Positions 80 through 29,008 of a DNA stretch of 32,000 nucleotides are shown here, piece by piece; within the stretch, counting starts at the first letter, position 1; the number at the start of each line of letters is the position of its first letter. Location: NCBI RefSeq assembly GCF_016127575.1, contig NZ_CP066018.1:3630001-3662000 (forward strand). Direction: 5' to 3'. The notes beneath the pieces are model-generated. The model ran no database searches and was not told the origin of the DNA. It saw only the letters and a program-made list of their open reading frames with translations. The stretch comes from Cupriavidus necator (lineage in GTDB: Bacteria > Pseudomonadota > Gammaproteobacteria > Burkholderiales > Burkholderiaceae). The translations under genes and the position numbers were made by a program.

Positions 80-541
80 ATGCGCTTCCCCCTGAGACAT
101 GTGTCAGTCGCCTCGGCCGTCATGGCACTCTGTATGACGGCTTTGGCACAAAGCGCACCGGATCCCATCCGCCCTCCGGCAATCCTTCCACTCGAATCGG
201 AACAGGCACCAAAGCTGGTCTCGTATCCGCCGCTGGCCGAACCGTTGGCCCGCGGTGTCGTCATCGTGCAGTTCCGGACCCAACACTTCCGTGTCATGCC
301 TGTGTTCGGCAAGACCGCCGTCCAGATATCGCCGCGCATTGGGCATCTTCATGTAACTGTCGACGACTCGCACATTACCTGGGCACACACCAGCGAGGAT
401 CCCGTCATCGTAGTGGGGCTGCCGCCGGGCGCACACAAGCTTCGGCTCGAACTGGCCGATCCCAGTCACAAGATCCTGGCCACGGAGAGCGTCGCCTTTA
501 CCTTGCCTGATCCGAAGGCGCCGGCGGCGCACAAGCATTGA
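80..541 (+). CDS. Secreted hypothetical protein, DUF6130-like
   Basis: 153-aa ORF with a signal peptide (MRFPLRHVSVASAVMALCMTALAQSA) and a GGAAGGA RBS just upstream. The motif GHLHVTVDD...GLPPGAHKLRLELADPSHK matches my memory of DUF6130 periplasmic proteins; this was not searched. Confidence 0.6.
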   Translation: MRFPLRHVSVASAVMALCMTALAQSAPDPIRPPAILPLESEQAPKLVSYPPLAEPLARGVVIVQFRTQHFRVMPVFGKTAVQISPRIGHLHVTVDDSHITWAHTSEDPVIVVGLPPGAHKLRLELADPSHKILATESVAFTLPDPKAPAAHKH

Positions 542-771: not shown

Positions 772-2163
772 TTAAATCGGGTACTGTGGCGCTCCGCCCT
801 GAATGGTCATCCATTGCCACTGGGAAATTCCTCCCAGTTGGCCGCTCCGCCAATGCTGGTGCCATTGCCAGACGCGCCGACGCCGCCGACCGGGTTGATG
901 ACCTCGTCGTTGACGGTCTGGTCGTTGATATGCAGCATGCCGGTACGCAGGCGTTCCCCAATGCGCAATGCCCGACCGACATTGCTGGAAACAATGCCCA
1001 TCGACAGCCCGTACTCGGTACGGTTGGCCAGCGCAATCGCTTCTTCATCCGTGTCGACGGCACCACCACGGCCACCGGCCCGAATATCTCTTCGCTGAAG
1101 GCCGGGCTATCCGGTGTCACGTCGCAACGATCCTGGCAACATTGTCGCGCTGGCCTTCATTGATCAACGGCCCGAGCGCGACGTCACCTTCAACGGGATC
1201 CCCGACCGTCAGGCTCGCGGCCTTGGCGGCCAGCTTCTCGACGAACCGGTCGTGAATGGCACGCTGTACCAGCACACGGTCGGTGGCCATGCAGATCTGG
1301 CCCTGGTGCAGGAAGCTACCCCAGGCGGTGTTTGCAACCGCGAGATCGAGATCGGCATCATCGAGGATAATCAGCGAATTCTTGCCGCCCAGCTCCAGCG
1401 AAACCTTCTTCAGGTGCCGGCCCGCGGCCTCCCCGACCTTGCGGCCAGCAGCCGTGGAGCCAGTGAACTGAATCATCGCCACATTTGGATCGGCCGTCAG
1501 CGCAGCACCGGCGGCACCATCGCCCGGCAGCACGTGCAGCGCGCAAGCCGGCAGGCCGGCGAGTTCAAACAGCCGCGCGACCACGAAGCCACCGCATACC
1601 GCCGTGCGGTGATCGGGCTTGAGCACCACCGCGTTGCCCAGCGCCAGCGCCAGCGCAGCGGCCCGCATCGCCAGGTAGAGCGGGAAATTGAACGGCGAGA
1701 TCACGCCGACTACGCCAAGCGGGCGCCGGCGTGCCAGCGACAGCCGCCCGGGCACGGAAGGCAATACCTCCCCGGCGGAGCGCGATGGCAGCCCTGCGGC
1801 TTCCTGCAGGACCTTGATGGTGATCGTGGTCTCGAACGCCGCCTTCGCTCGCGTGGAGCCGCCTTCGCGCACGATCCAGCCGACGATCTCATCGAAATGC
1901 GTCTCGGCAACTCGCACAGCCCTGCGCAGCACACCTGCTCGTTCTTCATAGTGCAGGTTGGCCCAGCCCGGCAATGCCTTCGCCGCGGCCTCGGCCGAAC
2001 TGGCAATCATCGAAGCATCGGCCATGCCGATACGCCCCAGTTCCCGGCCAGTAGCGGGCTCGATCACGCCGGTCGCGAAGCTGCCGGCCTGCCAGCGCCC
2101 GGTAAAGAGCTGGTCAGTCCAGATGCTCTTGTCGAGCAAGCCGGGGGAATGCGTGAGATTCAT
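772..2163 (-). pseudogene. NAD(P)-dependent aldehyde dehydrogenase, disrupted (internal deletion plus two frameshifts)
   Basis: ALDH homology is spread over several minus-strand frames. Frame 1117-2163 gives the N-terminal 348 aa with ELGGKN and GQICMA. The segment from 1120 reads VTPDSPAFSEEIFGPVAVVVP. The region ~830-1055 reads DTDEEAIALANRTEYGLSMGIVSS...HINDQTVNDE...NWEEF. The tail 772-826 reads QWQWMTIQGGAPQYPI-stop. About 45 codons are missing at ~1117-1120, and 1-nt frameshifts lie near 1053-1060 and 820-830. Confidence 0.85.
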
Positions 2164-2345
2164 GAAAACCCCATTCCTGCGGTGTTGTGGTGTGCCGAAT
2201 GACGCGCAGGAACACTCCTTCCCGCGCGCAGTCGCGCACGATCCTCACCGCATGACGGTGGTCCGAGCAACTAAAGCCGGCGATTCACAAGATCGCCTCC
2301 ACGCTTCGATCCCCATGAAATGCGCGGGAGAATCGAGCGCGGACC

Positions 2346-2903
2346 TCAAACGCTCTTGCGTGAGCCCGCGCGCGTAGGCGCAGCCCTTTCGCCCCGCCGG
2401 TTGGCCGCACGATCCGACAGCCAGTTGACAACCTGCACCCCGTAGCTGGCCGGCGTCTTGTCATTGACGCGCTGAGAAAGGTCGGCCAGGGTATGCCGTT
2501 TCAGTTCCGCTCGCATAGCCTTCTCTGCAGCCTGCATGACAGCCTGAATCGAGCAGACGCCACGCGTCGCCCAACCCGGTGCGTCATCATTGAAGACGGC
2601 ACAGCGCCCGCGGATCTCGAGGCAGTCGAACAGCGGCTTCTCGCCATCGATCGCGACCACGACATCGTGAACGGTAATGTGGTTGGCGGGCCGCGCAAGC
2701 CGGAATCCGCCCTTGATGCCCTCAGTGGCAACTACCAGCTTAGCCTTGGCCAACTTGGTGAACAGCTTGGCCAGGAAATCGTGTGGAACGCCCTGAAGCT
2801 CAGCCAGATCACGGACACTCGCTTCTTCCACGGCCGACTGCGAATGCGTCAGGTACAGCAGGCAGTGGAGGCTGTATTCAACGCCTGTACTGATTTGGGA
2901 CAT
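2346..2903 (-). CDS. Rrf2-family transcriptional regulator
   Basis: 185 aa. The N-terminal wHTH is typical of Rrf2/IscR/NsrR (MSQISTGVEYSLHCLLYL...VRDLAELQGVPHDFLAKLFTKLAKAKLVVATEGIKGGFRLARP). Cys94, Cys101 and Cys117 form a C-X6-C-X15-C cluster region. Palindromic box A sits 5 nt upstream of the ATG. Confidence 0.9.
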   Translation of the reverse strand: MSQISTGVEYSLHCLLYLTHSQSAVEEASVRDLAELQGVPHDFLAKLFTKLAKAKLVVATEGIKGGFRLARPANHITVHDVVVAIDGEKPLFDCLEIRGRCAVFNDDAPGWATRGVCSIQAVMQAAEKAMRAELKRHTLADLSQRVNDKTPASYGVQVVNWLSDRAANRRGERAAPTRAGSRKSV

Positions 2904-2907
2904 GGCA

Positions 2908-2932
2908 TACTAGGACTTTGTGTATCGTAGTT
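2908..2932 (-). promoter_or_regulatory. Palindromic box A (TACTAGGA-N9-TCGTAGTT) at the Rrf2 gene start
   Basis: An 8-9-8 inverted repeat with 2 arm mismatches and the same core and 9-nt A/T-rich spacer as boxes B-F. It lies 5 nt upstream of the Rrf2 ATG (2901-2903). No SD sequence is visible, so the mRNA may be leaderless or short-leader. Confidence 0.55.
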
Positions 2933-3101
2933 GCAATGCTATACAACTTCCGTGGGGTCCGCAAGGCAAAGGACATGCCGTTGGCAGTCACGGCAACCGG
3001 ACCGATAACCGGCTTCCGGTCGCCCGGCGCCCGGTGCCTGGCTGGTGTGAGCGACAAGCCTCCTGATACGCACTGAAACACACCCGGCAGCAGGCACGCC
3101 G

Positions 3102-4592
3102 TCAGGATGGTTTCCGCTGCCCCCATCCGCCGCCGAGGCTGCGCACCAGCGACACCGTCGCCGCGGCACGCAAGCCTGCCACCGCATTGGCATCGCGCTG
3201 CGACTGCAGCACGGTGCGATCGGCGTCGATCACGGTCAGGTAGTCGACGGCACCGGCATCGTAGCGGCTGCGCGAGATGCCCTGGGCCCGTTTCGCGCCG
3301 GCCAGGGCGCCGTCGAGCGCCGTGGCCTGCTGGCTGAGCCAGCGCACATCGGCCAGGCCGTCCTCCACCTCACGGAATGCCGACAGCACTGTCTGCCGGT
3401 AGCGCGCCACGCTCTCCTCGTGCGCGGCGCGGGCGCCAGCAAGGCTTGATCGGTTGCGGCCACCGTCGAACACGGTCTGCGCCACCGTCGAACCGACCAG
3501 CGGACCCAGCAGCCATGTGCGCGACGACCACTTGAACAGGTTCGACAGGTCCGACGACTCGAAGCCGAACAGCGCCGTGAGCGAGATGCGCGGGAAAAAC
3601 ACCGCGCGGGCGATGCCGATGCGCGCATTGGCCGCCGCCATCTGGCGTTCCGCCGCCGCAATATCGGGCCGGCGCTCGAGCAGTTCCGACGGCAGCCCCG
3701 CCGGCACGGCCACCGGAGCGGTATCGAACGGCCGGGCGGCGAGTCCGAACTGCGCGGGCGCCACGCCGGTCAGTACGGCCAGTGCATGTTCCTGGTTGGC
3801 GCGGCGGCGCTCGATGCTGGCCAGGCCGGAGCGCGCCGCGCCTAGTTCGCTTTCGGCGCGGGCCGGATCCAGGTCGGTGGCCTCCCCTGCTTCGTACCGC
3901 GTGCGCAGCAGCGACAGCGCGCCCTCACGCAGCCTGATCGTCGCATTGAGCAGCTCGCGGTCACTGTCCAGGGTGCGCAGCGCGAAGTAGGCCTGCGCCA
4001 CGTCGGCCTGCAGCGCCAGCTGCACGGACCGGTACAGTTCCTCGGCACCCCGCTCGTCGGCGCGCGCGGCGTCCACGCTGCTGGCCACGCGGCCGAATAG
4101 GTCGAGTTCGTAGCTGGCGAATGCGCGGGCCTTGAGCACCGTCTGGGGCGCCACGCGCGCGCCATCGGGCAGCCCCTGCGAGGCGGCCGACGGCTGCGAG
4201 CGAGTCGGGTCCAGGCCCACGCTCAGTTGCGGATACCGCGCCGCCTCGGTGGCGCCGGTGAACGCACGCGCCTGCTTCAGGCGCGCCGCCGCCGCGGCCA
4301 GCTCCTGGTTGTGAACGTTGGCTGCATCGATCAGCCGGTCCAGATCGGCATCACCAAACAGCTTCCACCACTCACCGCGCTGCTGGCCTTCGTCCGGCGT
4401 GGCGGTCTTCCATTGCGCGCTCTCGGCCGCGGCGGCCTCGGCTTCCTTGAACGTGGAGGCACTGGGTGTCTCCGGCACCTTGTAGGTCGGCGCCAGCGAG
4501 CAGCCGGCCAGGAGCAGCGCGGCCGCCATGGCCGCAAGCCTTGGCACGTTCCGCTTCGTCGCATCGCTAATGTTATGCATGTCTTTCACCAT
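3102..4592 (-). CDS. RND efflux outer-membrane factor lipoprotein, NodT family (OprN/OpcM-like)
   Basis: The start is taken at MVKDMHNISD...AAMAAALLLAGCSLAPTYKVPE (lipobox LAGC). The ATG shares one base with the stop of the upstream RND gene (TAATG at 4590-4594). The longer 636-aa track ORF is an artefactual 5' extension into the RND gene. Confidence 0.9.
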   Translation of the reverse strand: MVKDMHNISDATKRNVPRLAAMAAALLLAGCSLAPTYKVPETPSASTFKEAEAAAAESAQWKTATPDEGQQRGEWWKLFGDADLDRLIDAANVHNQELAAAAARLKQARAFTGATEAARYPQLSVGLDPTRSQPSAASQGLPDGARVAPQTVLKARAFASYELDLFGRVASSVDAARADERGAEELYRSVQLALQADVAQAYFALRTLDSDRELLNATIRLREGALSLLRTRYEAGEATDLDPARAESELGAARSGLASIERRRANQEHALAVLTGVAPAQFGLAARPFDTAPVAVPAGLPSELLERRPDIAAAERQMAAANARIGIARAVFFPRISLTALFGFESSDLSNLFKWSSRTWLLGPLVGSTVAQTVFDGGRNRSSLAGARAAHEESVARYRQTVLSAFREVEDGLADVRWLSQQATALDGALAGAKRAQGISRSRYDAGAVDYLTVIDADRTVLQSQRDANAVAGLRAAATVSLVRSLGGGWGQRKPS

Positions 4593-7500
4593 TACTCTGC
4601 GGACGCCACGGCGTGCGCGACCTTTGCATCCGTCGACACCGCCGCGCGGCGCTGGCCGCGCGTGGCCAGCAGGCGCAACGCCACATAGAACACCGGCGTC
4701 AGGAACAGTCCGAAGAAGGTCACGCCGAGCATCCCCGCGAACACCGCCACCCCCATGGCCTGGCGCATTTCCGCGCCGGCGCCGCTCGACACCACCAACG
4801 GCACCACGCCCATGATGAAGGCGAACGAGGTCATCAGGATCGGACGCAAGCGCAGGCGGCTGGCCTCGATCGCGGCCTCGACCACGGTGCGGCCGTGATG
4901 CTCCAGCTCGCGCGCGAACTCGACGATCAGGATCGCGTTCTTGGCCGATAGCCCCACCAGCACGATGAAGCCGATCTGCGTGAAGATGTTGTTGTCCCCT
5001 TGCGTCAGCCATACGCCCGTCATGGCAGCCAGCAGGCTCGTCGGCACGATCAGGATCACGGCCAGCGGCAGCGTCAGGCTCTCATACTGGGCAGCCAGCA
5101 CCAGGAACACCAGCAGCACGCACAGCGGGAAGATCCACACACCCGCGTTGCCGGCCAGGATGTCCTGGTAGGTCAGCTCGGTCCATTCGAAGCCGATGCC
5201 CTTCGGCAGGGTTTCGGCAGCGATGCGCTCGGCGGCAGCCTGCGCCTGGCCCGACGAGAAGCCCAGCGCCGGGCCGCCATTCAGGTCGGCGGCAGTGAAG
5301 CCGTTGTAGCGGATCACGCTGTCCGGGCCAAAGCCTTGCTTGACCTGCACCAGCGACGACAGCGGCACCATCTCGCCGCTGGCGCTGCGCGCCTTCAGCT
5401 GCAGGATATCCTCGGCATGCTGGCGGTACTGCGCATCTGCCTGCACCTTGACCTGGTAGGTACGGCCAAACTTGTTGAAGTCGTTGACGTAGGCCGAACC
5501 CAGGTAGGTCTGCAGCGTATCGAACACATCGGTCACCGGCACGCCGAGCTGCTTGGCCTTGGTACGGTCGAGCTGCACATCAAGCTGCGGCACGTTCACC
5601 TGGTAGTTGCTGAAGATGCCGGCAAGCTCAGGCGTGGCGCGCGCCTTGGTCATGAACGAGTTGGTGGCGTCGAACAGGGCGTCATAGCCCAGTGCGGCGC
5701 GGTCCTCGATCATCAGCTTGAAACCGCCGATCGTGCCCAGGTCCTGCACCGGCGGCGGCGGGAACACGGCAATGAACGCGTCCTGGATCGCGCCATACTC
5801 CTTGTTCAGGTCCGCGGCAATGGCCTTGCCCGACAGCTCCTTGCTCTTGCGCTTCTCGAACGGGTCAAGCGTGACAAAGACGATGCCGGCGCTCGGGCTG
5901 TTGGTGAAGCCGTTGATCGACAGGCCCGGGTAGGCAACGGCCGATTCCACGCCCGGATGCTTGAGCGCGATCTCCGACATGCGGCGCGTCACGTCCTCGG
6001 TGCGATCCAACGTAGCGCCGTCGGGCAGCTTGGCAAAGCTCACCAGGTACTGCTTGTCCTGCGCCGGCACGAAGCCCTTCGGCACGAGCTGGAACACGCC
6101 CCAGGCGGCCACCAGCATCACGGCGTAGACGCCAAATACCGAGCCCTTGCGGCGGATCACACCCTTCACGCCACGGCCATAGCTTTCGGAGCTGCGGCCG
6201 AAGAAGCGGTTGAAGCGGACGAAGAACTTGCCGAGGACCTTGTCCATGCCACGCGTCAGCCAGTCCTTGGGCGCGTCATGGCTCTTGAGCAGCAGGGCCG
6301 ACAGCGCGGGAGACAGCGTCAGCGAGTTGAAGGCCGAGATGATGGTCGAGATCGAGATGGTCAGCGCGAACTGCTTGTAGAACTGGCCGGTCAGGCCCGT
6401 CATGAAGGCCAGCGGCACGAACACAGCGATCAGCGTCAGCGCGATGGCGATGATGGGGCCGCTGACTTCGCGCATGGCCTTGTAGGTGGCCTCCTTCGGC
6501 GTCAGCCCCTCTTCGATGTTCCGCTCGACGTTCTCGACCACCACGATGGCATCGTCGACCACGATACCGATGGCCAGCACCAGCCCAAATAGCGACAGCG
6601 CATTGATCGAGAAGCCGAACGCATGCATCAGCCCGAAGGTACCGACAATCGACACCGGCACCGCCAGCAGCGGGATGATCGACGCGCGCCACGTCTGCAG
6701 GAACAGGATCACCACCAGCACCACCAGCACGATCGCCTCGAACAGCGTGTGGACCACCGCCTCGATGCTGTGGCGCACGAACTGCGTGGGGTCATAGACG
6801 ATGCTGTAGGCCACGCCTTCCGGCATGTTCTGCTTCAGCTCGGCCATGGTCTTGCGCACCTCGTTCGAGATCTCGATCGCGTTCGCCCCCGGTGACTGGA
6901 AGATCAGCAGTGACAGGGCGGACTTGTTGTCCAGCTGCGAACGCAGCGCGTATTCCGAAGCACCCAGTTCGATGCGCGCAATGTCCTTCAGGTACGTGAC
7001 CACACCGTCAGGCGAGGTCTTGGCGATGATGTCGCCGAACTCTTCCACGGTCTGCAGCCGGCCCTGCGCGTTCACCGACAGCTGCAGGTCGGTGCCCGGC
7101 AGCGTCGGCGACTGGCCGAGCACGCCTGCCGCCACCTGCACGTTCTGCTCGCGGATGGCGCGCACCACGTCCGACGCGGCGAGCCCGCGCTCGGCGATCT
7201 TCTCCGGATTCAGCCACACTCGCATCGAGTAGTCACCCGCGCCGAACAACCGCACCTGGCCGACGCCCTGGATCCGCGCGATGCGGTCCTTCACGTTGAT
7301 CAGCGCGTAGTTGCGCAGATAGGTCGTGTCATAGCGGTCGTTGGGCGAGACCAGGTGCACCACCATGGTCAGGTCGGGCGAACTCTTGACCGTGGTGATG
7401 CCCAGGCGGCGCACATCTTCCGGCAGGCGCGGCTCGGCCTGCGAGACACGGTTCTGCACGAGCTGCTGGGCCTTGTCCGGATCGGTGCCCAGCTTGAAGG

Positions 7501-7783
7501 TCACCGTCAGCGTCAGCGTGCCGTCGGTATTCGCCTGCGAGTTCATGTAGAGCATGTCCTCGACGCCGTTGATCTGCTCTTCCAGCGGCGTGGCCACGGT
7601 TTCGGCGATCACCTTAGGGTTGGCGCCCGGGAACTGCGCGCGCACCACCACTGACGGCGGCACCACTTCCGGGTACTCCGAGACCGGCAAATTGAACATC
7701 GAGATGGCGCCGATCAGGAAGATCAGCACCGACAGCACGCCCGCGAAGATCGGGCGGTCGACAAAAAATTTCGAGAAATTCAT
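4592..7783 (-). CDS. RND multidrug efflux permease, HAE1 family (MexF/BpeF/CeoB-like)
   Basis: 1063 aa, uninterrupted. The N-terminus MNFSKFFVDRPIFAGVLSVLIFLIGAISMFNLPVSEYPEVVPPSVVVRAQFPGANPKVIAETVATPLEE closely follows MexF-type pumps as I remember them. It shows the 12-TM AcrB-like architecture. Confidence 0.95.
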   Translation of the reverse strand: MNFSKFFVDRPIFAGVLSVLIFLIGAISMFNLPVSEYPEVVPPSVVVRAQFPGANPKVIAETVATPLEEQINGVEDMLYMNSQANTDGTLTLTVTFKLGTDPDKAQQLVQNRVSQAEPRLPEDVRRLGITTVKSSPDLTMVVHLVSPNDRYDTTYLRNYALINVKDRIARIQGVGQVRLFGAGDYSMRVWLNPEKIAERGLAASDVVRAIREQNVQVAAGVLGQSPTLPGTDLQLSVNAQGRLQTVEEFGDIIAKTSPDGVVTYLKDIARIELGASEYALRSQLDNKSALSLLIFQSPGANAIEISNEVRKTMAELKQNMPEGVAYSIVYDPTQFVRHSIEAVVHTLFEAIVLVVLVVILFLQTWRASIIPLLAVPVSIVGTFGLMHAFGFSINALSLFGLVLAIGIVVDDAIVVVENVERNIEEGLTPKEATYKAMREVSGPIIAIALTLIAVFVPLAFMTGLTGQFYKQFALTISISTIISAFNSLTLSPALSALLLKSHDAPKDWLTRGMDKVLGKFFVRFNRFFGRSSESYGRGVKGVIRRKGSVFGVYAVMLVAAWGVFQLVPKGFVPAQDKQYLVSFAKLPDGATLDRTEDVTRRMSEIALKHPGVESAVAYPGLSINGFTNSPSAGIVFVTLDPFEKRKSKELSGKAIAADLNKEYGAIQDAFIAVFPPPPVQDLGTIGGFKLMIEDRAALGYDALFDATNSFMTKARATPELAGIFSNYQVNVPQLDVQLDRTKAKQLGVPVTDVFDTLQTYLGSAYVNDFNKFGRTYQVKVQADAQYRQHAEDILQLKARSASGEMVPLSSLVQVKQGFGPDSVIRYNGFTAADLNGGPALGFSSGQAQAAAERIAAETLPKGIGFEWTELTYQDILAGNAGVWIFPLCVLLVFLVLAAQYESLTLPLAVILIVPTSLLAAMTGVWLTQGDNNIFTQIGFIVLVGLSAKNAILIVEFARELEHHGRTVVEAAIEASRLRLRPILMTSFAFIMGVVPLVVSSGAGAEMRQAMGVAVFAGMLGVTFFGLFLTPVFYVALRLLATRGQRRAAVSTDAKVAHAVASAE

Positions 7784-7885
7784 CTTGGTCTCGGCGAAAG
7801 CAGTCCCCGCTGGCGGTCCGCCGGAGCGGACGCCAGTGCAATCTCAGGGGAGAATTCCAGTTCGGTCTGTGGCGGAGGGTGGGAC

Positions 7886-9127
7886 TCAGCTCATCCTGGC
7901 CTTTCCGGCCTTCGCGTCAGCTGCGGCCTGCTTGCGATCCGTCGTGCTGCCACGCGACTCCAGTTCGCTGCGGTAGGCCATCGCTACCGGCTTCGGGGTC
8001 ACGGTGTCGCCGGGGCGCACGCGCGTCAGGCCATTCACGACGATGTTCTCGCCCGGTCGCAGACCCTTGCGGATCACACGCAGCCCTTCGTACGTCGGCC
8101 CCAGTTCGACTTCGCGGTACGCGAGCTTGTTGGCCTTTTCCACCAGGAGCACGAACTTCTTGCCCTGGTCGGTGCCTATGGCGCGATCGTTGACCAGCGC
8201 GGCGGGATATGGCGAGCCGCCGCCGAGCTTGACCTTCGCGTACAGGCCCGGCAGCAGGCGGCGGTCCTCATTGTCGAAGACGGCGCGCACGCGGATCGTA
8301 CCGCTGCGCGTGTCGAGCCGGTTGTCGATCGAATGAATCCGGCCCTTGTGCGGATTGCCATCCTCGTTGGCCAGGCCCAGGAATACCGGCAGGTCTCCCT
8401 TGCCGCCACCAGCGCCCGGCGTCGTGTAGCGCAGGTAGCTCTGCTCGTCGACATCGAAGCTCGCGTACACCGGCGAGACCGATACCACCGTGGTCAGCGG
8501 CGGCGATGCCGCGCCGGCCGCCACAAGGTTTCCCACCGTGATCTCGGCACGCGACACCCGGCCCGTGACCGGTGCAACGACGCGCGTGTAGCCCAGGTTC
8601 AGCTTCGCCACCTCCAGCGCCGCCTGCGCACCACGGACGTCGGCCGACGTCTCGCTGGCCGCGTTGATGCGCTCATCGAACTCGCGGCGCGAGATCGCGT
8701 TATCGTCGAGCAGGCGTTGCGCGCGCGCCTTCTCGGTCTGTGCATGCGATGCACGTACCTGCGCCGCTGCCAGTACCGCCTCGGCGCGCGCCACTTCGGC
8801 CGCATACGAGCGCGGATCGATCGTGAACAGCGGGTCGCCCTTCGTCACGATCGAGCCATCGCGGAAATGCACCGTTTCGATCGCGCCGGACACACGTGGA
8901 CGGATCTCAACACGATCCACAGCCTCGATGCGGCCCGAGAATTCATCCCATTCGGTGATGATGGTCTGGCCCACCACTGCCGCCACTTCCACCGCCGGGG
9001 TCGGCGGCGGCATGGTCGCCTGTGCTTCCCCGCCGTGCCAGGGACGCAGTACCGAGGCTGCCACGCCGGCCCCCAGGATTGCCACGAAGGCAATGGCGAG
9101 CAGTGTGTGTCGAGACTTGCGATTCAT
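7886..9127 (-). CDS. RND efflux periplasmic adaptor (MFP, MexE-like)
   Basis: 413 aa with an N-terminal membrane anchor, coiled-coil hairpin and beta-barrel regions typical of the HlyD/AcrA family. A GGAG RBS lies 8 nt upstream. It is the first gene of the MFP-RND-OMF operon. Confidence 0.9.
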   Translation of the reverse strand: MNRKSRHTLLAIAFVAILGAGVAASVLRPWHGGEAQATMPPPTPAVEVAAVVGQTIITEWDEFSGRIEAVDRVEIRPRVSGAIETVHFRDGSIVTKGDPLFTIDPRSYAAEVARAEAVLAAAQVRASHAQTEKARAQRLLDDNAISRREFDERINAASETSADVRGAQAALEVAKLNLGYTRVVAPVTGRVSRAEITVGNLVAAGAASPPLTTVVSVSPVYASFDVDEQSYLRYTTPGAGGGKGDLPVFLGLANEDGNPHKGRIHSIDNRLDTRSGTIRVRAVFDNEDRRLLPGLYAKVKLGGGSPYPAALVNDRAIGTDQGKKFVLLVEKANKLAYREVELGPTYEGLRVIRKGLRPGENIVVNGLTRVRPGDTVTPKPVAMAYRSELESRGSTTDRKQAAADAKAGKARMS

Positions 9128-9200
9128 CTTTCTTCACTCCATACATCTTTGAGATTCCAGAGTCGAGTCTTACCCCCGTGCAGCGCATCTTGGCATATCG

Positions 9201-9243
9201 GCGACCCATAACTACGATTATATTAGTCGTAGTTATGGGTCGC
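9201..9243 (-). promoter_or_regulatory. Palindromic box B, perfect 17-9-17, overlapping a sigma70-like promoter of the efflux operon
   Basis: GCGACCCATAACTACGA-TTATATTAG-TCGTAGTTATGGGTCGC, with perfectly complementary arms. On the minus strand the -35 is TTGCGA (9240-9245). A 17-nt spacer follows, then -10 TATAAT (9217-9222). The box lies 75 nt upstream of the MFP start. Confidence 0.75.
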
Positions 9244-9428
9244 AAGATATTTCTTGATCGAGCAACGTTGTCCACCTGCATGTGCAGCGGTGAGATCGTG
9301 TCGCGGGCGTTGTATGAAGTTGAGCCGACAACCTCCGCGTCGTCTTTCTGCGGCCGACCGGGGCCGGTGCGCGCGTCCAGCCCATCACGCCGGATCTGGC
9401 GAAGCGGCTTCGGAGGTTGCGCGGATGC

Positions 9429-10271
9429 TTACGCGTTGCGTAGCGACCGGAACCCGGAGCGCAATTCGGCACTGAATAGCTCTGGCTCCTCCCAGGCGGC
9501 AAAGTGACCGCCCTTCTCGACGCGGCGATAGTAGATCAGGTTTTGATAGGCTCGCTCCAACCACTGTTTTGGCGGCCGGTAGACCTCGCCAGGGAAAACC
9601 GTCACTGCCACCGGAACGGTGATGGGAGAATTCATTGCCGGGGCGCTACTGGCTTCCCAGTAGATCCGTCCGCTCGACTCGCCTGTATTTGTGAGCCAAG
9701 AGAGCGAGATGTTGTCAAGGATCGCATTACGGCCGAGTGCTCGCTCCGGATCGCCACGCGTGAATACCCAGTCGGCCTGCTTGTCATAGATCCACGCTGT
9801 CAGCCCCACTGGCGAATCGGCCAGGCCAAAGGCAATGGTTTGCGGCCGCGTTTGCATGATGGCCGCGTAACCGAATCCCCGGTTGAGAAAATCCCTCGCG
9901 TCGTCGAACACTTGCCTTTCTTCAGGGGTCAGGATTGACGGCGCAGGGTCCCCGCTTTTCAGCGCCATGGCTATCGCCGGTGGCAACGTGGTGGCGCGCT
10001 CGATGCGGTTGACGTGGATGCCAAGCAGCCCTTCAGGCGCCAGACTGCCAAGAGCGTCGGAGATGATTGCGCCCCAGTCGCCTCCCTGCGAAACGTAGCG
10101 CGCATATCCGAGCCGCTTCATCAGCACGTCCCACGCGCGGGCGATGCGGCCCGGGTGCCAGCCAGTGTCCGTGGGCTTCTGTGAGAAGCCGAAGCCGGGA
10201 ACCGACGGAATCACGAGATGAAACGCATCGTCCGCGCTGCCGCCATGCGCTGTCGGGTCCGTCAGCGACGG
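9429..10271 (-). pseudogene. Epoxide hydrolase (alpha/beta hydrolase), 5'-truncated
   Basis: Only the hydrolase core is present (...LTDPTAHGGSADDAFHLVIPSVPGFGFS...GGDWGAIIS...FAAWEEPELFSAELR). The frame is open to ~10271. The ~110-aa N-terminal epoxide-hydrolase domain and a plausible start are absent. Confidence 0.75.
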
Positions 10272-10930
10272 CGCCGCGCTTCGATCCCGCGCAGGCTCGG
10301 CGGACCTTTACGCTGGCCCTGTCTGATGTTGGAGAAGCGGCATTCCTGCCGCGCCTGCTGGCCCGGCTCATGAAAGAGGCGCCGCATGTGGACGTGCGTA
10401 CGGTGTCGGCACGGCACACGGACATCATGGATCAGCTCGAACGCGGCAGGATCGACCTGGCCATTGGCTACTATCCGGATCTGGGCGGTTCGGACGTATT
10501 CCAGCAGCGCCTGTTCCGGCATGGCTTCGTGTGCCTGGCGCGCAAGAATCACCCAGTCGCACGCGGACGCATGACGGCGCAACAGTTCCGGGAACCGCCT
10601 CATGCGATGATCCAGAACGAAAGCCGCAGCCAGGAGCTGGTCGAGGCGTATCTGCGCCAGCACGGTATCGCACGCCGCGAGATGCTGCGTTCTCCGCATT
10701 TCCTCAGCATTCCGCTCGTGATCGCATCGTCGGATCTGGTCGTCACGGTGCCGCTGCCGGTCGGCGAGCTGTTCGCGCGCATCGCGGATGTACAGGTCCT
10801 TGAGCCACCGTTCCCGATCCCCGCTTTCGATCTCAGGCAGCATTGGCACCGTTGCCAGCATGACGACCCGGGCAATCGCTGGCTGCGGGCGATCACCCAG
10901 GAACTGTTCGGCGAATCTCCTGGCGAGTAG
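10272..10930 (+). pseudogene. LysR-family regulator, substrate-binding domain only (HTH missing)
   Basis: Homology starts at ...FDPAQARRTFTLALSDVGEAAFLPRLLARLMKEAPHVDVRTV and continues to the stop. The ~90-aa N-terminal wHTH is absent. The upstream part of the track ORF (10067-10270) is antisense to the hydrolase and meaningless. Confidence 0.75.
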
Positions 10931-11007: not shown

Positions 11008-12219
11008 TCAGGCCACTACCACATAGTGCGGATCGGCCCAAGCCAGCGCCTCGGCACGGTCAGCACTTGGCGGATAGATCCACTCGGTGTTGATCTGCGT
11101 CTTCAGTGCCTTGGCTTCTGCGCCCACCAGCTTCACCTGACGATCCCAGCCTTCGGTGTATACAGCCCCCCACGACCCGAGATCCAAGCAGGTGACATAT
11201 TTCGGCTGGCTGTAAGGAATCGGCGTTGCCCCCAGGAGGTCCGCCGCCACATTATGTCCTGCAATCCGGCCCAGCTTCATCGCGTGCTGACAGGACATCG
11301 CGGCGTGGTTGCCTTCCTCATCGGTGGACGCGTAGGCAACGTCACCAGTAGCGTAGACCGTATCGATGCCTTTGACCTTCAGGTTGCGATCGACATGGAG
11401 CCGCCCGAAGTTGTCGCGCTGCGCAGGAATCTGCGACGTCAGCGCACTGGCGCGCGCGCCGGCGGTCCAGATTACCGTGTCTGTCTCGATGCGCTGACCG
11501 TTCTCGAGCGTAACGCCGTTCGCATCGACCGCCGCGACGCCGGAGCCGAGCTTCCATGTCACACCGAGCTCAGTCAGCGCCTCGGTAATCACCGGACGCG
11601 GGCCGGGACCCAGATCCGGGCCAACGTCGCTGTTGCGCTCAACCATAATCACGTTCACGGCAGCGTCCTTGCCGAACACCTCGCGTAGACGGGCAGGCAT
11701 TTCCGCTGCGGTCTCGATACCGGTGAAGCCGGCACCGGCGATCACTACCGTGTTGCGCGCTACGCTTTCGGGACGACGCGCCAGGCTGGCGAGATGCGCA
11801 TCAAGCGCTGCGGCATCAGCCACCTGGTCTACATTGAACGAATGCTGCTCGAGACCCGGAATCTGCGGCCGGAACAGGCGGCTACCAGCGGCAAGGACCA
11901 GGCGGTCATAGCCGAGCTTACGGCGCGACGTATCGCCACCCAGCCCCACAAGTTCCACTTTCTGGCTTACCACATCAATGCGTTCGACCAGGCCCTGGAT
12001 GAACCTGACGCCCACAGCCTGAAAGATTTCCTGCAGCGGCGCCCTCATGCCGCCTGGGTTCTTCTCATAAAGACGCGGACGCACGTGCAGCTCGGGCTCC
12101 GGCGCGACCAGTACGATCTCCACGTCAGTGCGCCCCACTTCATCCAGAAGGCGGGCCGAACCCAGCGCGCTCCACATGCCGGCGAAGCCGGCACCAATAA
12201 CAACAATACGTTTCGACAT
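11008..12219 (-). CDS. NAD(P)/FAD-dependent oxidoreductase, NDH-2 (type II NADH dehydrogenase)-like, copy 1
   Basis: 403 aa with two Rossmann motifs (VVIGAGFAG and VVIAGAGFTGIETAAEM) and ATGDVAY...QHAMKLGRIAGHNVA. An AGGAG RBS is present. It is a paralogue of 13196-14407. Confidence 0.9.
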   Translation of the reverse strand: MSKRIVVIGAGFAGMWSALGSARLLDEVGRTDVEIVLVAPEPELHVRPRLYEKNPGGMRAPLQEIFQAVGVRFIQGLVERIDVVSQKVELVGLGGDTSRRKLGYDRLVLAAGSRLFRPQIPGLEQHSFNVDQVADAAALDAHLASLARRPESVARNTVVIAGAGFTGIETAAEMPARLREVFGKDAAVNVIMVERNSDVGPDLGPGPRPVITEALTELGVTWKLGSGVAAVDANGVTLENGQRIETDTVIWTAGARASALTSQIPAQRDNFGRLHVDRNLKVKGIDTVYATGDVAYASTDEEGNHAAMSCQHAMKLGRIAGHNVAADLLGATPIPYSQPKYVTCLDLGSWGAVYTEGWDRQVKLVGAEAKALKTQINTEWIYPPSADRAEALAWADPHYVVVA

Positions 12220-12302
12220 GCTTCATGCTCCTGAATCAATGCTCGGTTTCGCGTGACCGGCGAACTCCACAGTTGGCGTATCAGCCTGATCAGCCAGGCG
12301 GC

Positions 12303-12345
12303 GCCCACCGTAACTACGATTGTAATAGTCGTAGTTACGGTGGGC
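12303..12345 (-). promoter_or_regulatory. Palindromic box C1, perfect 17-9-17, overlapping the promoter of NDH-2-like gene 1
   Basis: GCCCACCGTAACTACGA-TTGTAATAG-TCGTAGTTACGGTGGGC. On the minus strand the -35 is TTGCCC (12342-12347). A 17-nt spacer follows, then -10 TACAAT (12319-12324). An A5 tract lies just upstream of the -35. Confidence 0.75.
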
Positions 12346-12442
12346 AAGATTTTTCCGCGACGCCAAGGTCGCGACATTCTCTTGTGCCATCTCGTGCGCT
12401 TTTCACCTGCGCCTTGCACTTCAATCATGTATCGACTATCTT

Positions 12443-12467
12443 TACTACGACTATTGTAATCGTAGTA
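12443..12467 (+). promoter_or_regulatory. Palindromic box C2 (TACTACGA-CTATTGTAA-TCGTAGTA), perfect 8-9-8
   Basis: It shares the core of the other boxes. The box plus ~45 nt upstream (TTGCACTTC...ATCGACTATCTTTACTACGACTAT) is homologous to the box F cassette at 29190-29244. No intact gene follows it on the + strand. Confidence 0.6.
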
Positions 12468-12709
12468 TATTGAGCTGGTGCTTTTCCTGCGTGTGACATT
12501 GCTGGAGCTGACGGACGCGATGCTCTACCAAACCGGGCGGCGCGTCTCCGACCCCGGCAGGCCTACAGCAGGCCACGACGAAGCAAGCGCGCTTGGCGAT
12601 CGAATACCGGCAGCAAATGATCAAGATCAAGGCTCTGGTTGACGATACCCGCCGCACGGCCGAAGAACGGTTGGAGGACATCGCCAAGCTGCTCGAGGGC
12701 CTAGGACGA

Positions 12710-12950
12710 CTACCCCTCATCGCTGTCCACGACAAACACGGCCAGCAGCTTGGCGGGCTTTGACTTGCTCGCGTTGCGGCTAACTGCATGGTGCGATCCC
12801 GGCTCCTCATGGAAGCTCTCGCCCGCCTTGCAGATGCGTTCCGGCCCATTGTCGACCTTGCTCGCAAGGCTGCCAGAGACGACATAGGCATGCCGGTTCC
12901 CTCAGGCACCCGGGTGCATCCAGCCGGTTCTCGTTACAGAGATTCTGTCC
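12710..12950 (-). pseudogene. Cupin-domain protein remnant (decayed paralogue of 29662-30087)
   Basis: The minus-strand translation YVVSGSLASKVDNGPERICKAGESFHEEPGSHHAVSRNASKSKPAKLLAVFVVDSDEG-stop (12710-12886) matches the C-terminal half of the cupin at 29662-30087. Upstream, the metal-binding HYH region is deleted or garbled and the signal peptide is absent. Confidence 0.8.
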
Positions 12951-12967
12951 CTGGTGGGCCGGCGCTT

Positions 12968-12992
12968 AACTGCGATTCATGTAGTCTCAGTA
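12968..12992 (-). promoter_or_regulatory. Degenerate palindromic box F' (AACTGCGA-N9-TCTCAGTA) upstream of the cupin remnant
   Basis: The reverse complement of 12964-13027 aligns with the box F cassette (TTGCACTTC...GATC...GTTACT..GACTA..TGA.CG.AGTTAA.GC). The arms are 6/8 self-complementary and the spacer is 9 nt. Confidence 0.45.
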
Positions 12993-13066
12993 ACAATTGT
13001 GGATTGATCGCTGAAGTGCAAGCCACTCGTGCAGGTCAGCTGGTAGCAGTTGGTAAAAAAAAACTT

Positions 13067-13109
13067 GCATCGCTTAACTACGACTACTATGATCGCAGTT
13101 AAGCGATGC
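13067..13109 (+). promoter_or_regulatory. Palindromic box D, 17-9-17 (1 mismatch), overlapping the promoter of NDH-2-like gene 2
   Basis: GCATCGCTTAACTACGA-CTACTATGA-TCGCAGTTAAGCGATGC. The -35 is TTGCAT (13065-13070). A 17-nt spacer follows, then -10 TATGAT (13088-13093). An A9 tract (13055-13063) lies just upstream of the -35. Confidence 0.75.
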
Positions 13110-13195
13110 GAACGAGCGCTCGCTGTTTCGATCGGGCGCGCTACGCCGCGGCGGAGTCGGCCTGTTACTTGAGATTTGGTTCAGGAGTATGAAAG

Positions 13196-14407
13196 ATGTC
13201 CAAACGGATTCTTGTCATTGGCGCCGGCTTTGCCGGCATGTGGAGCGCGCTGGCTTCGGCCCGTTTGCTTGACCAGGTTGGGCGCACCGATGTGGAGATC
13301 GCCCTTGTCGCACCGAAGCCGGAACTGCACATCCGCCCTCGCCTCTACGAGCAGAATCCGAACGGGATGAAGGCGCCGTTGCAGGACATCTTCCAGGCCG
13401 TTGGCGTCAGGTTCATCCAGGGCAAGGTGGAGCACATCGATGTCGCAAACCAGACGGTGAGCGTTGCGGGCGTTGGCGCTGATACGCCGCGCCAGCGCAT
13501 CAGCTATGACCGTCTGGTGCTTGCTGCAGGAAGCCGCCTGTTCCGGCCGCAGATCCCAGGGCTGGACCAGCATGCCTTCAATGTCGACCAGGTCGCTGAC
13601 GCCGCGGAGCTTGAAGCCCATATCCATGGACTGGCCGACCGCCGGGAGAGCGCCGGCCGCAATACGGTGGTAATCGCGGGTGCCGGCTTTACCGGTATCG
13701 AGACGGCTGCCGAAATGCCGGCTCGCCTCCGCGAAGTCCTGGGCGAGGACGCTGCCGTGAGCGTGATCATGGTCGAGCGAAATGCCGCGATCGGCCCTGA
13801 CCTGGGCGAGGGTCCGCGGCCGGTCATCACGCAGGCGCTGGCCGAGCTTGGGGTGACATGGAAGCTCGGCTCGGGTGTCGCGGCTGTCGATGCGAAAGGC
13901 GTCATGCTCGAGAATGGGGAGCGCATCGAGGCAGACACCGTGATCTGGACGGCGGGCGCCCGGGCCAACGAACTCACCGCACAGATTCCGGCAGAGCGGG
14001 ACAACTTTGGCCGGCTGCATGTTGACCGCAACCTGAAGGTCAAGGGGGTCGAGGCGGTGTTCGCCACCGGCGACTGCGCCTATGCCGCGACCGATGACGA
14101 AGGCAACTTCGCCACCATGTCTTGCCAGCACGCCATGAATCTGGGCCGCTCGGCCGGCCACAACGTGGCAGCAGACCTGGTGGGCGCGGCGCCAATCCCT
14201 TACAGCCAGCCGAAGTACGTGACCTGCCTGGACCTGGGGCCCTGGGGCGCTGTCTACACGGAAGGCTGGAACCGCCAGGTGAAGATGACGGGCGGCGTCG
14301 CCAAGGCGCTGAAGACGCGGATCAATACCGAGTGGATCTATCCTCCGAGCGCGAATCGTGAAGAAGCGCTTGCCTTGGCTGACCCACGGTTCATCGTCGT
14401 GGCCTGA
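13196..14407 (+). CDS. NAD(P)/FAD-dependent oxidoreductase, NDH-2-like, copy 2
   Basis: 403 aa, the same length as copy 1. By eye roughly four-fifths of residues are identical. It has a homologous RBS context (TTCAGGAGTATGAAAG-ATG) and a homologous terminator hairpin. Confidence 0.9.
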   Translation: MSKRILVIGAGFAGMWSALASARLLDQVGRTDVEIALVAPKPELHIRPRLYEQNPNGMKAPLQDIFQAVGVRFIQGKVEHIDVANQTVSVAGVGADTPRQRISYDRLVLAAGSRLFRPQIPGLDQHAFNVDQVADAAELEAHIHGLADRRESAGRNTVVIAGAGFTGIETAAEMPARLREVLGEDAAVSVIMVERNAAIGPDLGEGPRPVITQALAELGVTWKLGSGVAAVDAKGVMLENGERIEADTVIWTAGARANELTAQIPAERDNFGRLHVDRNLKVKGVEAVFATGDCAYAATDDEGNFATMSCQHAMNLGRSAGHNVAADLVGAAPIPYSQPKYVTCLDLGPWGAVYTEGWNRQVKMTGGVAKALKTRINTEWIYPPSANREEALALADPRFIVVA

Positions 14408-14462: not shown

Positions 14463-15030
14463 GTACGCCCAGCATGGGCGCACTCTCGTGGGTGTAAGTC
14501 CCACCGTAAGTTGATCACAGCGGACGAAGCGAAGCGCAACTGCGAAAGGGTGACCGATCGTGGGGAGGAGCGCGAGCGAAGCTGCGAGCCGAGGAACACG
14601 AACCGGATAGAAGGCGGTGCCGACCAGAACGAGCGGGCAAAGCTTCGCGAAGTTCTCGCGATCAAGGGGAGGCGGCGTATATCCGGCGGTTGTGCAGTGA
14701 AGGAGTACGTTCTTACCTGGGGAGATCTCGCCTCATGCCTGAACGGGCAACGGCGTCGAGCCGGAGCGAGAAGTCGGCAGAGGTCGAAGTAGTCGGAGGG
14801 GTAGGGCTCAAGACCGCCGATGAAGGACCGAGCGAAAGGGAGTGTTCGAAGCCGTGTCGATGCAGCAGGCATCGCGTCAGAAGCCCGCGCGAGCGGGGCG
14901 AGCGAAGGAAACGGACGGTGAAACCGGCCGGGAACTCGCTTGCGACGAAGCCTGCGGCCTGCGACGCGAACCAGAGAGCACAGGGTCGGCGCCGCTTGCA
15001 GCGGCGCTGACGCGAGATAACCTGGGTAGT
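14463..15030 (+). mobile_element. Group II intron, 5' ribozyme portion only (class C-like); RT ORF and domains V/VI absent
   Basis: It begins GTACGCCCAGCATGGGCGCACTCTCGTGGGTGTAAGTCCCACCGTAAG. It also contains GAGGAACACGAAC, GTTCTTACCTGGGGAG and GAGAAGTCGGCAGAGGTCGAAGTAGTC. These align with the 5' end and domain I-III landmarks of the Oceanobacillus iheyensis IIC intron as I recall it. There is no reverse transcriptase frame downstream, and homology gives way to a minus-strand recombinase fragment near 15030. Confidence 0.8.
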
Positions 15031-15608
15031 ATCCAGGGTGATCCACCATGGCCCCGCCCGTCGAGCTTACGAGCGTGGACCACCTGGCGCTCAATCCAGT
15101 AATACACGACGTGTGGACTGATGCCCAGTCGGTGAGCGAGTTGTTGTACCGTGAGTTCGTCAGGCCACTGGAGGCTGGTCGGCGCAATCCCGTACCGGTC
15201 GCGGATCCACTTGACCATGGAGAGCGTGAACGATTTGCCAGTTGGGCTGCGCCGGCCTTCCTGATTGAGGTGCGCAACGATTTGTGGGTCGGACAGATGT
15301 TGCGACAGCCTGCGTACGTGCTCGACGGTCGCAGTGGGATAGCGCATCGCGTCGGTGACCGGCTTGGGCAAAGTCACGGTGGTGTCGGTACAGGTACCGC
15401 CCTGCCAACGCACATGTAGGACTACCTGTCTCGTTGCGGGCAGCTTCTCGAACCTGATGTACCGACTCAAGACACTCACTGGTCCTTGCCTGTGGGCGCG
15501 CGAGACCGGCTCCCAGGCCACGGAGGGGCCATCCGTGTAGATGTGCTCAACCGCATGGCGGCCCTCGCTCGCCCGCAATCCGTGCGCGTTGGCTGACTTG
15601 GTGTTCAC
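15031..15608 (-). pseudogene. Large serine recombinase, C-terminal fragment
   Basis: ...VLHVRWQGGTCTDTTVTLPKPVTDAMRYPTATVEHVRRLSQHLSDPQIVAHLNQEGRRSPTGKSFTLSMVKWIRDRYGI...LTVQQLAHRLGISPHVVYYWIERQVVHARKLDG resembles the C-terminal region of ~700-aa recombinase-family proteins. No resolvase catalytic domain is present. Confidence 0.65.
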
Positions 15609-15821
15609 GGAAATACCAACGCCTTCAGATCCGACTTTTGCAACAACGCCCTTCTTCGACCAACTGGGCCTGCCCCCTCACTTTACCTCAACCTCTCGAA
15701 CCGCCCGGTGCGGACCCGCATGCCGGGTGGTAATGGAATGGACGCCCCCGTCCGAAACGGCATCGATGTGCCAAAGTGGTAAGTGCGTCGAAGCACAACC
15801 ATCATCGAAGGAGGCGTCACC

Positions 15822-17227: not shown

Positions 17228-17357
17228 GATGCTGGCCCGTGCAGAATTGTGATGGAAGCGGATACCCCTGGGGGCCCGTCCGCCCTGGCCTCGGCCGGAG
17301 CGAGGGATCGGCGCGGTCAGCACCTTACGCGGCCCTGGCCACCCAGGTTGCATGGCG

Positions 17358-26311: not shown

Positions 26312-29008
<2,697 letters not shown>

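Follow-up and report, generated by a model that had tools for sequence, protein, structure and literature searches.

To our knowledge, RsrR of Streptomyces venezuelae is the only regulator of the Rrf2 family known to sense through the redox state of its iron-sulfur cluster. In SoxR, it is likewise the redox state of a [2Fe-2S] cluster, and not cluster loss, that controls the transcription of efflux pumps and oxidoreductases. A comparison between the two proteins has been made previously (PMC5015018). The [2Fe-2S] cluster of RsrR bridges the subunits and is bound by Cys90 and Cys110 of one monomer and by Glu8 and His12 of the other (PMC9218516, PMC11138216, PMC8204329). Only the oxidised [2Fe-2S]2+ form binds DNA tightly; upon reduction, the His ligand is protonated, Trp9 flips and the DNA is released (PMC5015018, PMC11138216). 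Two 25-bp sites located 1 bp apart have been described for rsrR-nmrA, and a Streptomyces rsrR deletion revealed one responding target gene as opposed to more than 600 binding sites (PMC5015018). Here, we present a computational analysis of an Rrf2-family gene and of a recurrent palindromic box in a 32,000-nt stretch of the Cupriavidus necator genome (contig NZ_CP066018.1, positions 3,630,001 to 3,662,000; in the following, the window). The original prediction for this stretch, made from its sequence, had proposed the Rrf2 protein as the cognate, autoregulated repressor of the boxes, and comparative evidence makes it the best candidate for this role.

The Rrf2 gene and its relationship to RsrR

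The regulator gene (its product is termed the query below) is bordered by two terminator-like elements:

2346-2903, minus strand: Rrf2-family regulator gene, RsrR-type by sequence (Tyr10/Gln37 subtype), 185 aa, ATG start, TGA stop
2279-2297, minus strand: terminator-like hairpin followed by a T-run, about 50 nt past the Rrf2 stop codon
2976-2995, minus strand: terminator-like hairpin between the end of a pump operon and the Rrf2 promoter

The second hairpin separates the Rrf2 gene from the pump operon, which suggests a transcription unit of its own. Translation of the open reading frame (ORF) bore out both the gene and the cysteine spacing C94-X6-C101-X15-C117 given in the original prediction, and additionally revealed Cys14. 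The 185-aa protein matches the Pfam family Rrf2 (PF02082) with 1.3e-31 and 109.9 bits (cut-off 30) and the superfamily model TIGR00738 with 94.7 bits (cut-off 73.3), the latter being the sole NCBIfam model that was reached. With hidden Markov model (HMM) scores above the curated cut-offs, it falls into the Rrf2 superfamily, characterised by a winged helix-turn-helix (HTH) and a long dimerisation helix. An identity as IscR, NsrR, RirA, CymR or SufR was rejected, since the NCBIfam equivalog models score 35-57 bits compared with cut-offs of 110-275.

In a phmmer search of PDB sequences, RsrR structures rank at the top (6HSD, 6HSE, 6HSM and 6Y42; E=6e-24), the next Rrf2 structures following at 4e-8 to 1e-4, and BLASTP against S. 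venezuelae RsrR gives 41% identity over 160 aa. The AF2 model of the protein has a mean predicted local distance difference test score (pLDDT) of 74.5. Used as a Foldseek query, it retrieves RsrR chains as the top 11 matches (6e-13 to 5e-11) and CymR, IscR and NsrR at 1e-7 or worse, while at E<1e-3 it matches Rrf2 structures only. By both searches, RsrR is its nearest relative among the characterised Rrf2 subfamilies. On sequence grounds, we regard it as a proteobacterial RsrR-type member of the Tyr/Gln subtype, that is, as a new member and not as a new category of system.

Predicted cluster ligands and the Tyr/Gln subtype

In the alignment, Glu9, His13, Cys94 and Cys117 of the query correspond to Glu8, His12, Cys90 and Cys110 of RsrR, within a common FxCxEIRxR motif, and the complete RsrR ligand set of Glu, His, Cys and Cys is present. 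All four residues are kept in 120/120 nearest database homologues (65-92% identity; from Cupriavidus, Paraburkholderia, Burkholderia, Ralstonia, Thauera, Massilia, Serratia, Klebsiella and Dyella) as well as in 44/44 more distant homologues (46-80% identity) that were retrieved through the DNA motif alone. Cys101 pairs with RsrR Gly97, which is no ligand position. It is kept in 113 of the 120 close homologues (N or S otherwise) and in 40 of the 44 motif-retrieved ones; the members in which it is replaced (N, S or L, 6-9% of homologues) retain the box. Because Cys101 aligns to Gly97 and varies to this extent, the proposal of three Cys ligands, the third displaced by an insertion, is probably wrong. 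The expectation of a differently ligated Fe-S cluster holds insofar as the predicted ligation is not that of IscR or NsrR; this ligation, however, has already been published for RsrR, and Cys117 is probably no displaced third ligand of an IscR/NsrR-type site.

Features that define IscR (Cys92/Cys98/Cys104/His107, control of isc/suf, equivalog HMM) are not found, TIGR02010 reaching 49.3 bits compared with a cut-off of 207.55, and the neighbourhood of the Rrf2 gene contains no isc or suf genes. The same applies to NsrR (Asp8 plus C-X5-C-X5-C, a [4Fe-4S] cluster, hmp targets, HMM), with 51.2 bits for NF008240 versus 182 and with no hmp or other nitric oxide (NO) detoxification gene in the conserved neighbourhood.

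An exhaustive search of 1.84 billion cluster representatives (50%-identity clusters) yielded 367 matches at E<=1e-10, and 79 full-length representatives among the best 150 of these were classified. The Glu..His..Cys..Cys pattern is near-universal among the 79, which split into two subtypes: E-Y-H/Q/C-C-C, the commonest pattern and that of the query, and E-W-H/(H,Y,F)/C-G-C, that of RsrR. Cys101 tracks with the Tyr/Gln subtype, and actinobacterial homologues keep Trp and His. Judged from these alignments, the query represents an uncharacterised sister subtype, in which both signal-transmission residues of RsrR, Trp9 and His33, are replaced and an extra, mostly conserved cysteine, Cys101, is present.

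Boxes in the window

The motif ACTAnGA-N9-TCnTAGT was taken from box A alone and then scanned over the window in comparison with shuffled sequences. Six exact copies were found (2909, 9211, 12313, 12444, 29055 and 29220; 0.00 expected), and with up to two mismatches the number rises to eight (12969 and 13077 added) versus 0.16 expected, a count that 0/100 shuffles reached. The enrichment is real and far beyond chance. Eight boxes are therefore counted in place of the six originally listed. The 8-9-8, 25-bp form of box A was confirmed and spans 2908-2932; the box ends 5 nt ahead of the ATG (2903). It also proved correct that the Rrf2 protein is the only intact regulator linked to a box, as an intact OmpR-type regulator (22330-23046) has none nearby.

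The boxes occur in two registers relative to the promoters. Type I boxes lie between the -35 and -10 hexamers, with the -10 hexamer in the 9-bp spacer of the box, and type II boxes begin 1-4 nt after the -10 hexamer, where they cover the predicted transcription start. Boxes B, C and F belong to type I, together with the typical box of genes similar to type II NADH:quinone oxidoreductases (NDH-2), and boxes A, D and H to type II. The palindromes are listed without strand:

2909-2931: box A, the regulator's own operator by prediction, ACTACGATACACAAAGTCCTAGT on the gene strand; exact match, type II
9211-9233: box B, exact; centre of a 43-bp perfect palindrome (9201-9243); type I, promoter of a resistance-nodulation-division (RND) pump operon
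12313-12335: box C, exact; in a 43-bp palindrome (12303-12345); type I, promoter of NDH-2-like gene A
12444-12466: box D, exact; type II after plus-strand TTGCAC-17-TATCTT; downstream gene seems truncated or lost
12969-12991: box E, 2 mismatches; upstream of a cupin gene fragment (12710-12901, minus strand)
13077-13099: box F, 1 mismatch; in a 43-bp palindrome (13067-13109); type I, promoter of NDH-2-like gene B
29055-29077: box G, exact; 46 nt upstream of a pyruvate-dehydrogenase-E1-like (PDH-E1-like) gene (26312-29008, minus strand)
29220-29242: box H, exact; type II after TTGCAC-17-TATCGT; upstream of a plus-strand operon

Several strong boxes are embedded in perfect palindromes of 35-45 bp (9201-9243, 12303-12345, 13067-13109 and 29049-29083, and near +1884 in loci L044/L058). 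Their flanks differ by site and species and yet remain self-complementary, as in Burkholderia with gcgctcGata..tatCgagcgc in one species and gcgctcCata..tatGgagcgc in another; 10/10 complementary flanking positions are seen in 11/107 boxes. In addition, the outer flank supplies a -35 hexamer, TTGCGn. The extended palindromes might reflect bidirectional promoters placed face to face, cruciform formation or a footprint wider than the box. Rfam, tRNA and tandem-repeat scans of the window gave no match bearing on the regulator or the boxes.

Promoter architecture and leader of the Rrf2 gene

2936-2964, minus strand: predicted sigma-70-type promoter of the Rrf2 gene, -35 TTGCGG (2964-2959), 17-bp spacer, -10 TAGCAT (2941-2936)

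On the gene strand, the order ahead of the start codon is TTGCGG-N17-TAGCAT-TGCA-ACTACGATACACAAAGTCCTAGT-ATGCC-ATG, so that box A starts 4 nt after the -10 hexamer. In a phylogenetic footprint of 75 unique orthologous upstream regions anchored on the box, TTG is found at -33..-31 from the box in 55-57 of 75 and TAnnnT at -10..-5 in 59 of 75, while the distance from box to ATG spans 3 to 26 nt. As this distance varies and the -35/-10 register is fixed, the box is tied to the promoter and not to the start codon. Transcription is predicted to begin at the initial A residues of AACTACGA (about 2932-2930), where box A has its left edge; this would give a leader of about 29 nt consisting of the operator itself. 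With regard to the leaderless or short-leader mRNA suggested originally, the conserved -35/-10 pair that directly precedes the box speaks against a leaderless transcript. The lack of a Shine-Dalgarno sequence in the window, on which that suggestion drew, was observed again, neither the 5 nt between box and ATG nor the right arm of the box containing a similar sequence. A further candidate promoter, TTGCAA-18-TAGTAT, which overlaps box A and implies a leaderless transcript, was not preferred, being unconserved in orthologues.

Of the type I boxes, box B lies in TTGCGA-17-TATAAT (minus strand, 9245-9217; 10/12 consensus matches), box C in TTGCCC-17-TACAAT (minus strand, 12347-12319) and box F in TTGCAT-17-TATGAT. 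The spacer of the NDH-2-like box is conserved because it holds the -10 hexamer (TAGAAT on the coding strand).

Pairing of box and regulator across genomes

The original prediction had named co-occurrence of the motif with this Rrf2 clade, or with a different regulator, as a check, and searches in both directions favour the Rrf2 clade. Starting from the protein, 79 genome loci encoding an orthologue were collected. A box (up to two mismatches) is found in 63 of them at the position seen in the window, beginning 26-32 nt before the ATG or, in four of these loci, 47-49 nt before it. In 58/79 loci, a neighbour is a 403-aa Pyr_redox_2 flavoprotein with 67-98% identity to the two copies in the window; its gene is usually convergent with the Rrf2 gene and is preceded by a near-invariant box, TAACTACGATTCTATGAGTCGTAGTTA. 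Starting from the motif, exact matches to TAACTACGA-N9-TCGTAGTTA in metagenome contigs led to 80 readable stretches. A member of the Rrf2 clade is encoded in 47 of these and the flavoprotein in 53, with the box 50-160 bp upstream; the two genes are often divergent and have one box in common. About 18 stretches contain neither gene, which by estimate is about the chance level for 18 fixed bases, given the size of the collection. In the loci without an adjacent Rrf2 gene, no recurrent alternative regulator was found next to the box. The predicted recognition helix AKLFT(K/R)L is conserved in all loci carrying the box.

The pump operon of the window provides a natural comparison. In C. metallidurans CH34 (L170, megaplasmid 1520412-1532418), an operon orthologous to 3102-9245 with 86% nucleotide identity lacks both an adjacent Rrf2 gene and a box, the latter even when three mismatches are allowed, whereas Cupriavidus sp. 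P-10 shares the arrangement of the window, with one box before the pump and one before the regulator. The absence of both box and Rrf2 gene at the CH34 pump indicates that the pump joined the regulon only in the lineage of the window and P-10.

A distant pair was noticed on the Escherichia albertii IncF plasmid NZ_CP030786.2 (88284-90126, L080), where a 48%-identical member of the Tyr/Gln subtype, with Ser at position 14 and Leu at position 101, is divergent from a gene for a 400-aa FAD-dependent oxidoreductase. This indicates that the pair of regulator and flavoprotein is mobile.

Genes downstream of the boxes

3102-9127, minus strand: RND efflux operon, MexEF-OprN/AdeFGH-like; adaptor 7886-9127, pump 4592-7783, outer-membrane factor 3102-4592
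11008-12219, minus strand: NDH-2-like flavoprotein A, 403 aa, Pyr_redox_2, 80% identical to paralogue B
13196-14407, plus strand: NDH-2-like flavoprotein B, 403 aa, Pyr_redox_2
26312-29008, minus strand: PDH-E1-like gene with box G upstream
29263-31498, plus strand: operon after box H; small secreted protein 29263-29565, cupin 29605-30087, AhpD-like carboxymuconolactone decarboxylase (CMD) 30084-30539, diiron oxygenase/desaturase-like protein 30536-31498

The RND operon contains the Pfam domains HlyD and OEP, and the adaptor is MexE/OqxA-like, its best NCBIfam match being MexE with 438 bits, below the equivalog cut-off; related replicons carry an adeF-like annotation for this operon. The best PDB matches of the NDH-2-like proteins are type II NADH:quinone oxidoreductases (4NWZ with 2e-29, 5NA1, which is S. 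aureus NDH-2, and YjlD). Cupin and CMD genes adjoin an NDH-2-like gene and a box in loci L011, L021-L023, L097, L100 and L111, and the pairing of the PDH-E1-like gene with a box recurs at L021, L106, L159 and L162.

In the region 11008-14407, the two NDH-2-like paralogues face outwards from a 1-kb region with four boxes, which includes the truncated cupin gene 12710-12901 (minus strand) and the box at 12444 without an intact downstream gene. The region looks like two modules of the form "NDH-2-like, box, box, cupin" fused tail-to-tail with deletions. A DUF6130 protein (80-541, plus strand; Pfam 3e-67) is encoded within a few kb of the box/cupin/CMD module in the other Cupriavidus loci L021-L023, L097, L111 and L159. 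It may share the stress regulon, and its gene in the window has no box ahead of it.

Comparison with known systems

For the comparison of operators, a Streptomyces plasmid homologue with 80% identity to RsrR was used in place of the S. venezuelae rsrR locus itself. Its gene is divergent from an NAD(P)H-binding (NmrA-like) gene, and the intergenic region reads AACTCGGATAAGTCTTGTCCGAGAT-g-ATACTCGGATATTCTGGGTCCGAGT, that is, two 25-bp sites 1 bp apart of the form ACTCGGA-N9-TCCGAG(T/A). The box of the window, ACTACGA-N9-TCGTAGT, has the same 7-9-7 geometry and differs at 2 of 7 bases of the half-site. The window boxes thus show the RsrR operator form, an inverted repeat of 25 bp (11-3-11) whose half-site is of the ACTCGGA type. 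In Paraburkholderia, many of the boxes have the sequence AACTCGGAT, and the window consensus agrees with 5/6 rsrR operator bases from the RsrR-DNA crystal structure (PMC9338935 Table 2).

Further likenesses to RsrR are the operator at the regulator's own promoter, the frequent paired sites in divergent intergenic regions and targets of the NAD(P)H/quinone oxidoreductase type. In contrast, the query subtype consistently has Tyr for Trp9, Gln for His33 and Cys101 for Gly97, and the query carries a conserved C-terminal tail of about 25 aa (K149, P151, W161, R165, R169). Its partner is an NDH-2-like flavoprotein instead of an NmrA-type regulator, its host is a Gram-negative betaproteobacterium, and its regulon seems compact with full palindromes, whereas that of RsrR comprises hundreds of half-sites.

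With IscR and NsrR, the system shares the winged-helix fold and the dimer architecture, as well as operators that are palindromes of some 25 bp and, by prediction, autoregulation, but the query lacks the C-X5-C-X5-C(-X2-H) motif and the regulon lacks isc/suf and hmp genes. SaiR, HypR and SifR are sensors of oxidants or quinones with NAD(P)H-dependent reductases under their control, and the C-X7-C of SaiR recalls C94-X6-C101; these proteins have no Fe-S cluster, no invariant Glu/His/Cys/Cys set and no close sequence similarity to the query. OqxR of Klebsiella and pOLA52, an Rrf2-family protein (PMC13059784), is a repressor encoded beside the RND pump operon under its control. An identity as OqxR was rejected, as BLASTP against pOLA52 OqxR gives no alignment at E<=100. 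OqxR belongs to a different Rrf2 subfamily, and the association with a pump arose independently. SoxR differs in its MerR fold, in its all-Cys cluster and in acting as an activator through DNA distortion.

Proposed mechanism and alternative explanations

Family and fold, ligand conservation, the non-random boxes and their overlap with promoters, the two-way co-occurrence and the RsrR-like operator are established here. Starting from these results, we consider it likely that the protein is an RsrR-type homodimeric [2Fe-2S] repressor acting through the boxes at these promoters; what we infer by analogy is the type of cluster, the repression, the physiological signal and the direction in which the redox switch works. 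By homology, each subunit interface would hold a [2Fe-2S] cluster, with one subunit providing Cys94 and Cys117 as ligands and its partner Glu9 and His13. In its holo-form, most likely with an oxidised cluster as in RsrR, the protein would bind the 23-25 bp palindromes (T)AACTACGA-N9-TCGTAGTT(A), and the bound dimer would block RNA polymerase in type I and type II positions alike. Reduction or loss of the cluster would release the DNA and derepress the NADH-oxidising NDH-2-like flavoprotein, the MexEF-like RND pump and the detoxification genes for cupin, AhpD-like and diiron proteins, together with the PDH-E1 paralogue and the regulator itself.

Several points weigh against this model. Trp9 and His33 of RsrR are replaced by Tyr10 and Gln37, which are invariant in 120/120 and 44/44 homologues; this may mean that the switch mechanism of RsrR does not carry over. 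Cys101 is kept in about 91-94% of the clade, which may leave room for a role of this residue. In the AF2 model, the confidence around the cluster loop is moderate, with a pLDDT of 59-66 for residues 91-120, and the model is a monomer without the inter-subunit site. A consensus promoter scan of 2250-3110 called nothing, and the promoter of the Rrf2 gene, with 7/12 consensus matches, rests on phylogenetic conservation. Finally, a literature search found no paper on this Rrf2 clade, nor any electrophoretic mobility shift assays, spectroscopy or transcriptomics; a paper on an A. baumannii Rrf2 protein was set aside, as the protein described there is a true NsrR.

The subtype itself may bear on the mechanism. 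The Tyr10/Gln37/Cys101 proteins, about half of the RsrR-like clusters sampled, could conceivably form a mechanistically distinct sister group with a bridging cluster, no Trp flip and a possible thiol or ligand-swap input through Cys101, a proposal that we hold to be possible but rather doubtful. An alternative would be a cluster-free thiol switch like SaiR, HypR or SifR, in which a Cys94-Cys101 disulfide, or alkylation by oxidants or electrophiles, would free the DNA. C94-X6-C101 indeed resembles the C-X7-C of SaiR (PMC9218516), Cys101 is as frequent as stated above and follows the Tyr/Gln subtype, and a regulon with AhpD-like, cupin and MexEF-like proteins has an electrophile/oxidant flavour. 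A two-Cys switch, however, leaves the invariant Glu9, His13 and Cys117 unexplained, and a complete Fe-S ligand set stands alongside C94-X6-C101. Box-keeping members exist with N, S or L at position 101, and homology is close to RsrR, whereas SaiR, HypR and SifR are absent among the PDB and NCBIfam matches, so that we consider this switch improbable. Hardly better placed, and in our estimate slightly less probable again, is an NsrR-like [4Fe-4S] sensor of NO or O2 that would bind its cluster through Cys94, Cys101, Cys117 and Glu9 of the other subunit and respond through cluster degradation. NsrR uses Asp8 plus three Cys, and Glu9 of the query is at the equivalent N-terminal position; moreover, MexEF-type pumps respond to nitrosative stress in Pseudomonas. 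Such a sensor is at odds with the spacing C-X6-C-X15-C in place of C-X5-C-X5-C, the NsrR model score of 51 versus 182 bits, a His13 as invariant as in RsrR, the members without Cys101 and the lack of an hmp or NO-detoxification gene in the conserved neighbourhood.

Two further explanations concern the boxes. A different regulator could bind them, the Rrf2 gene being just one member of the regulon, since roughly a third of the stretches that were retrieved by motif and hold an NDH-2-like gene lack an Rrf2 gene in the portion retrieved. Beside the box, however, no second regulator family is seen repeatedly, and the box shares the geometry and 5/7 half-site bases of the experimentally defined RsrR operator. 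Box and Rrf2 gene are present together at the pump in the window lineage and are both missing in CH34, and the recognition helix is constant across box-carrying loci; this explanation appears very unlikely. Alternatively, the boxes might be no protein operators at all and form palindromes for structural reasons, as cruciforms, hairpin terminators or copies of a mobile repeat. This would fit the perfect 41-45 bp palindromes of several boxes with their variable yet complementary flanks, and two boxes were flagged as terminator-like. The box at the regulator's own promoter, though, is the most positionally conserved and has no extended palindrome, the relevant strand has no gene ending at the "terminators", and all boxes lie in promoter regions in a fixed register with the -35/-10 hexamers, which makes a purely structural role extremely improbable.

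In the rather doubtful reading of the Tyr/Gln subtype as a distinct sister group, a homeostatic loop would result: an over-reduced NADH/quinone pool or redox-cycling drugs would switch on an NDH-2-like enzyme that burns NADH, joined in some lineages by a multidrug RND pump. The Tyr/Gln subtype would then be a proteobacterial counterpart of SoxR on an Rrf2 scaffold. The natural Trp-to-Tyr and His-to-Gln substitutions offer a ready test of the switch mechanism proposed for RsrR. The proteobacterial clade has a small, strongly conserved regulon that comprises the NDH-2-like gene, with one near-perfect operator ahead of it, and the cupin/AhpD-like genes, and genetically tractable Burkholderiales hosts would make the signal and logic of an RsrR-type regulator directly testable. 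The recruitment of a MexEF/AdeFGH-like multidrug pump in the Cupriavidus lineage of the window would tie redox sensing to intrinsic drug efflux.

Other features of the window

A thiol-redox cluster without boxes nearby is located at 16685-23046 and comprises a redoxin/AhpC-TSA protein, a DsbD transmembrane (TM)/thioredoxin fusion and a truncated Pyr_redox protein; an intact pair of histidine kinase and OmpR-type response regulator is encoded beside it (21032-23046). Rfam yields a single match in the window, a D1-D4 fragment of a group II intron (RF02001, 101.8 bits) at 14544-14711 on the plus strand, next to fragments of a MerR/HTH-like gene (14877-15677, minus strand) and of an IS110 transposase gene (15919-16815). 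This makes the region around the match junk or the scar of a mobile element. A LysR-type ORF (10067-10930, plus strand), with a substrate-binding domain and no HTH detected, overlaps an alpha/beta-hydrolase ORF (9429-10307, minus strand); one or the other ORF is probably a remnant. An aldehyde dehydrogenase gene downstream of the Rrf2 gene (807-2163, minus strand) seems to be frameshifted: Pfam positions 10-325 are matched in 1117-2163, and the C-terminal portion is encoded in a different frame (807-1106). In C. consociatus (L004), an intact homologue of this aldehyde dehydrogenase gene comes after the Rrf2 gene.

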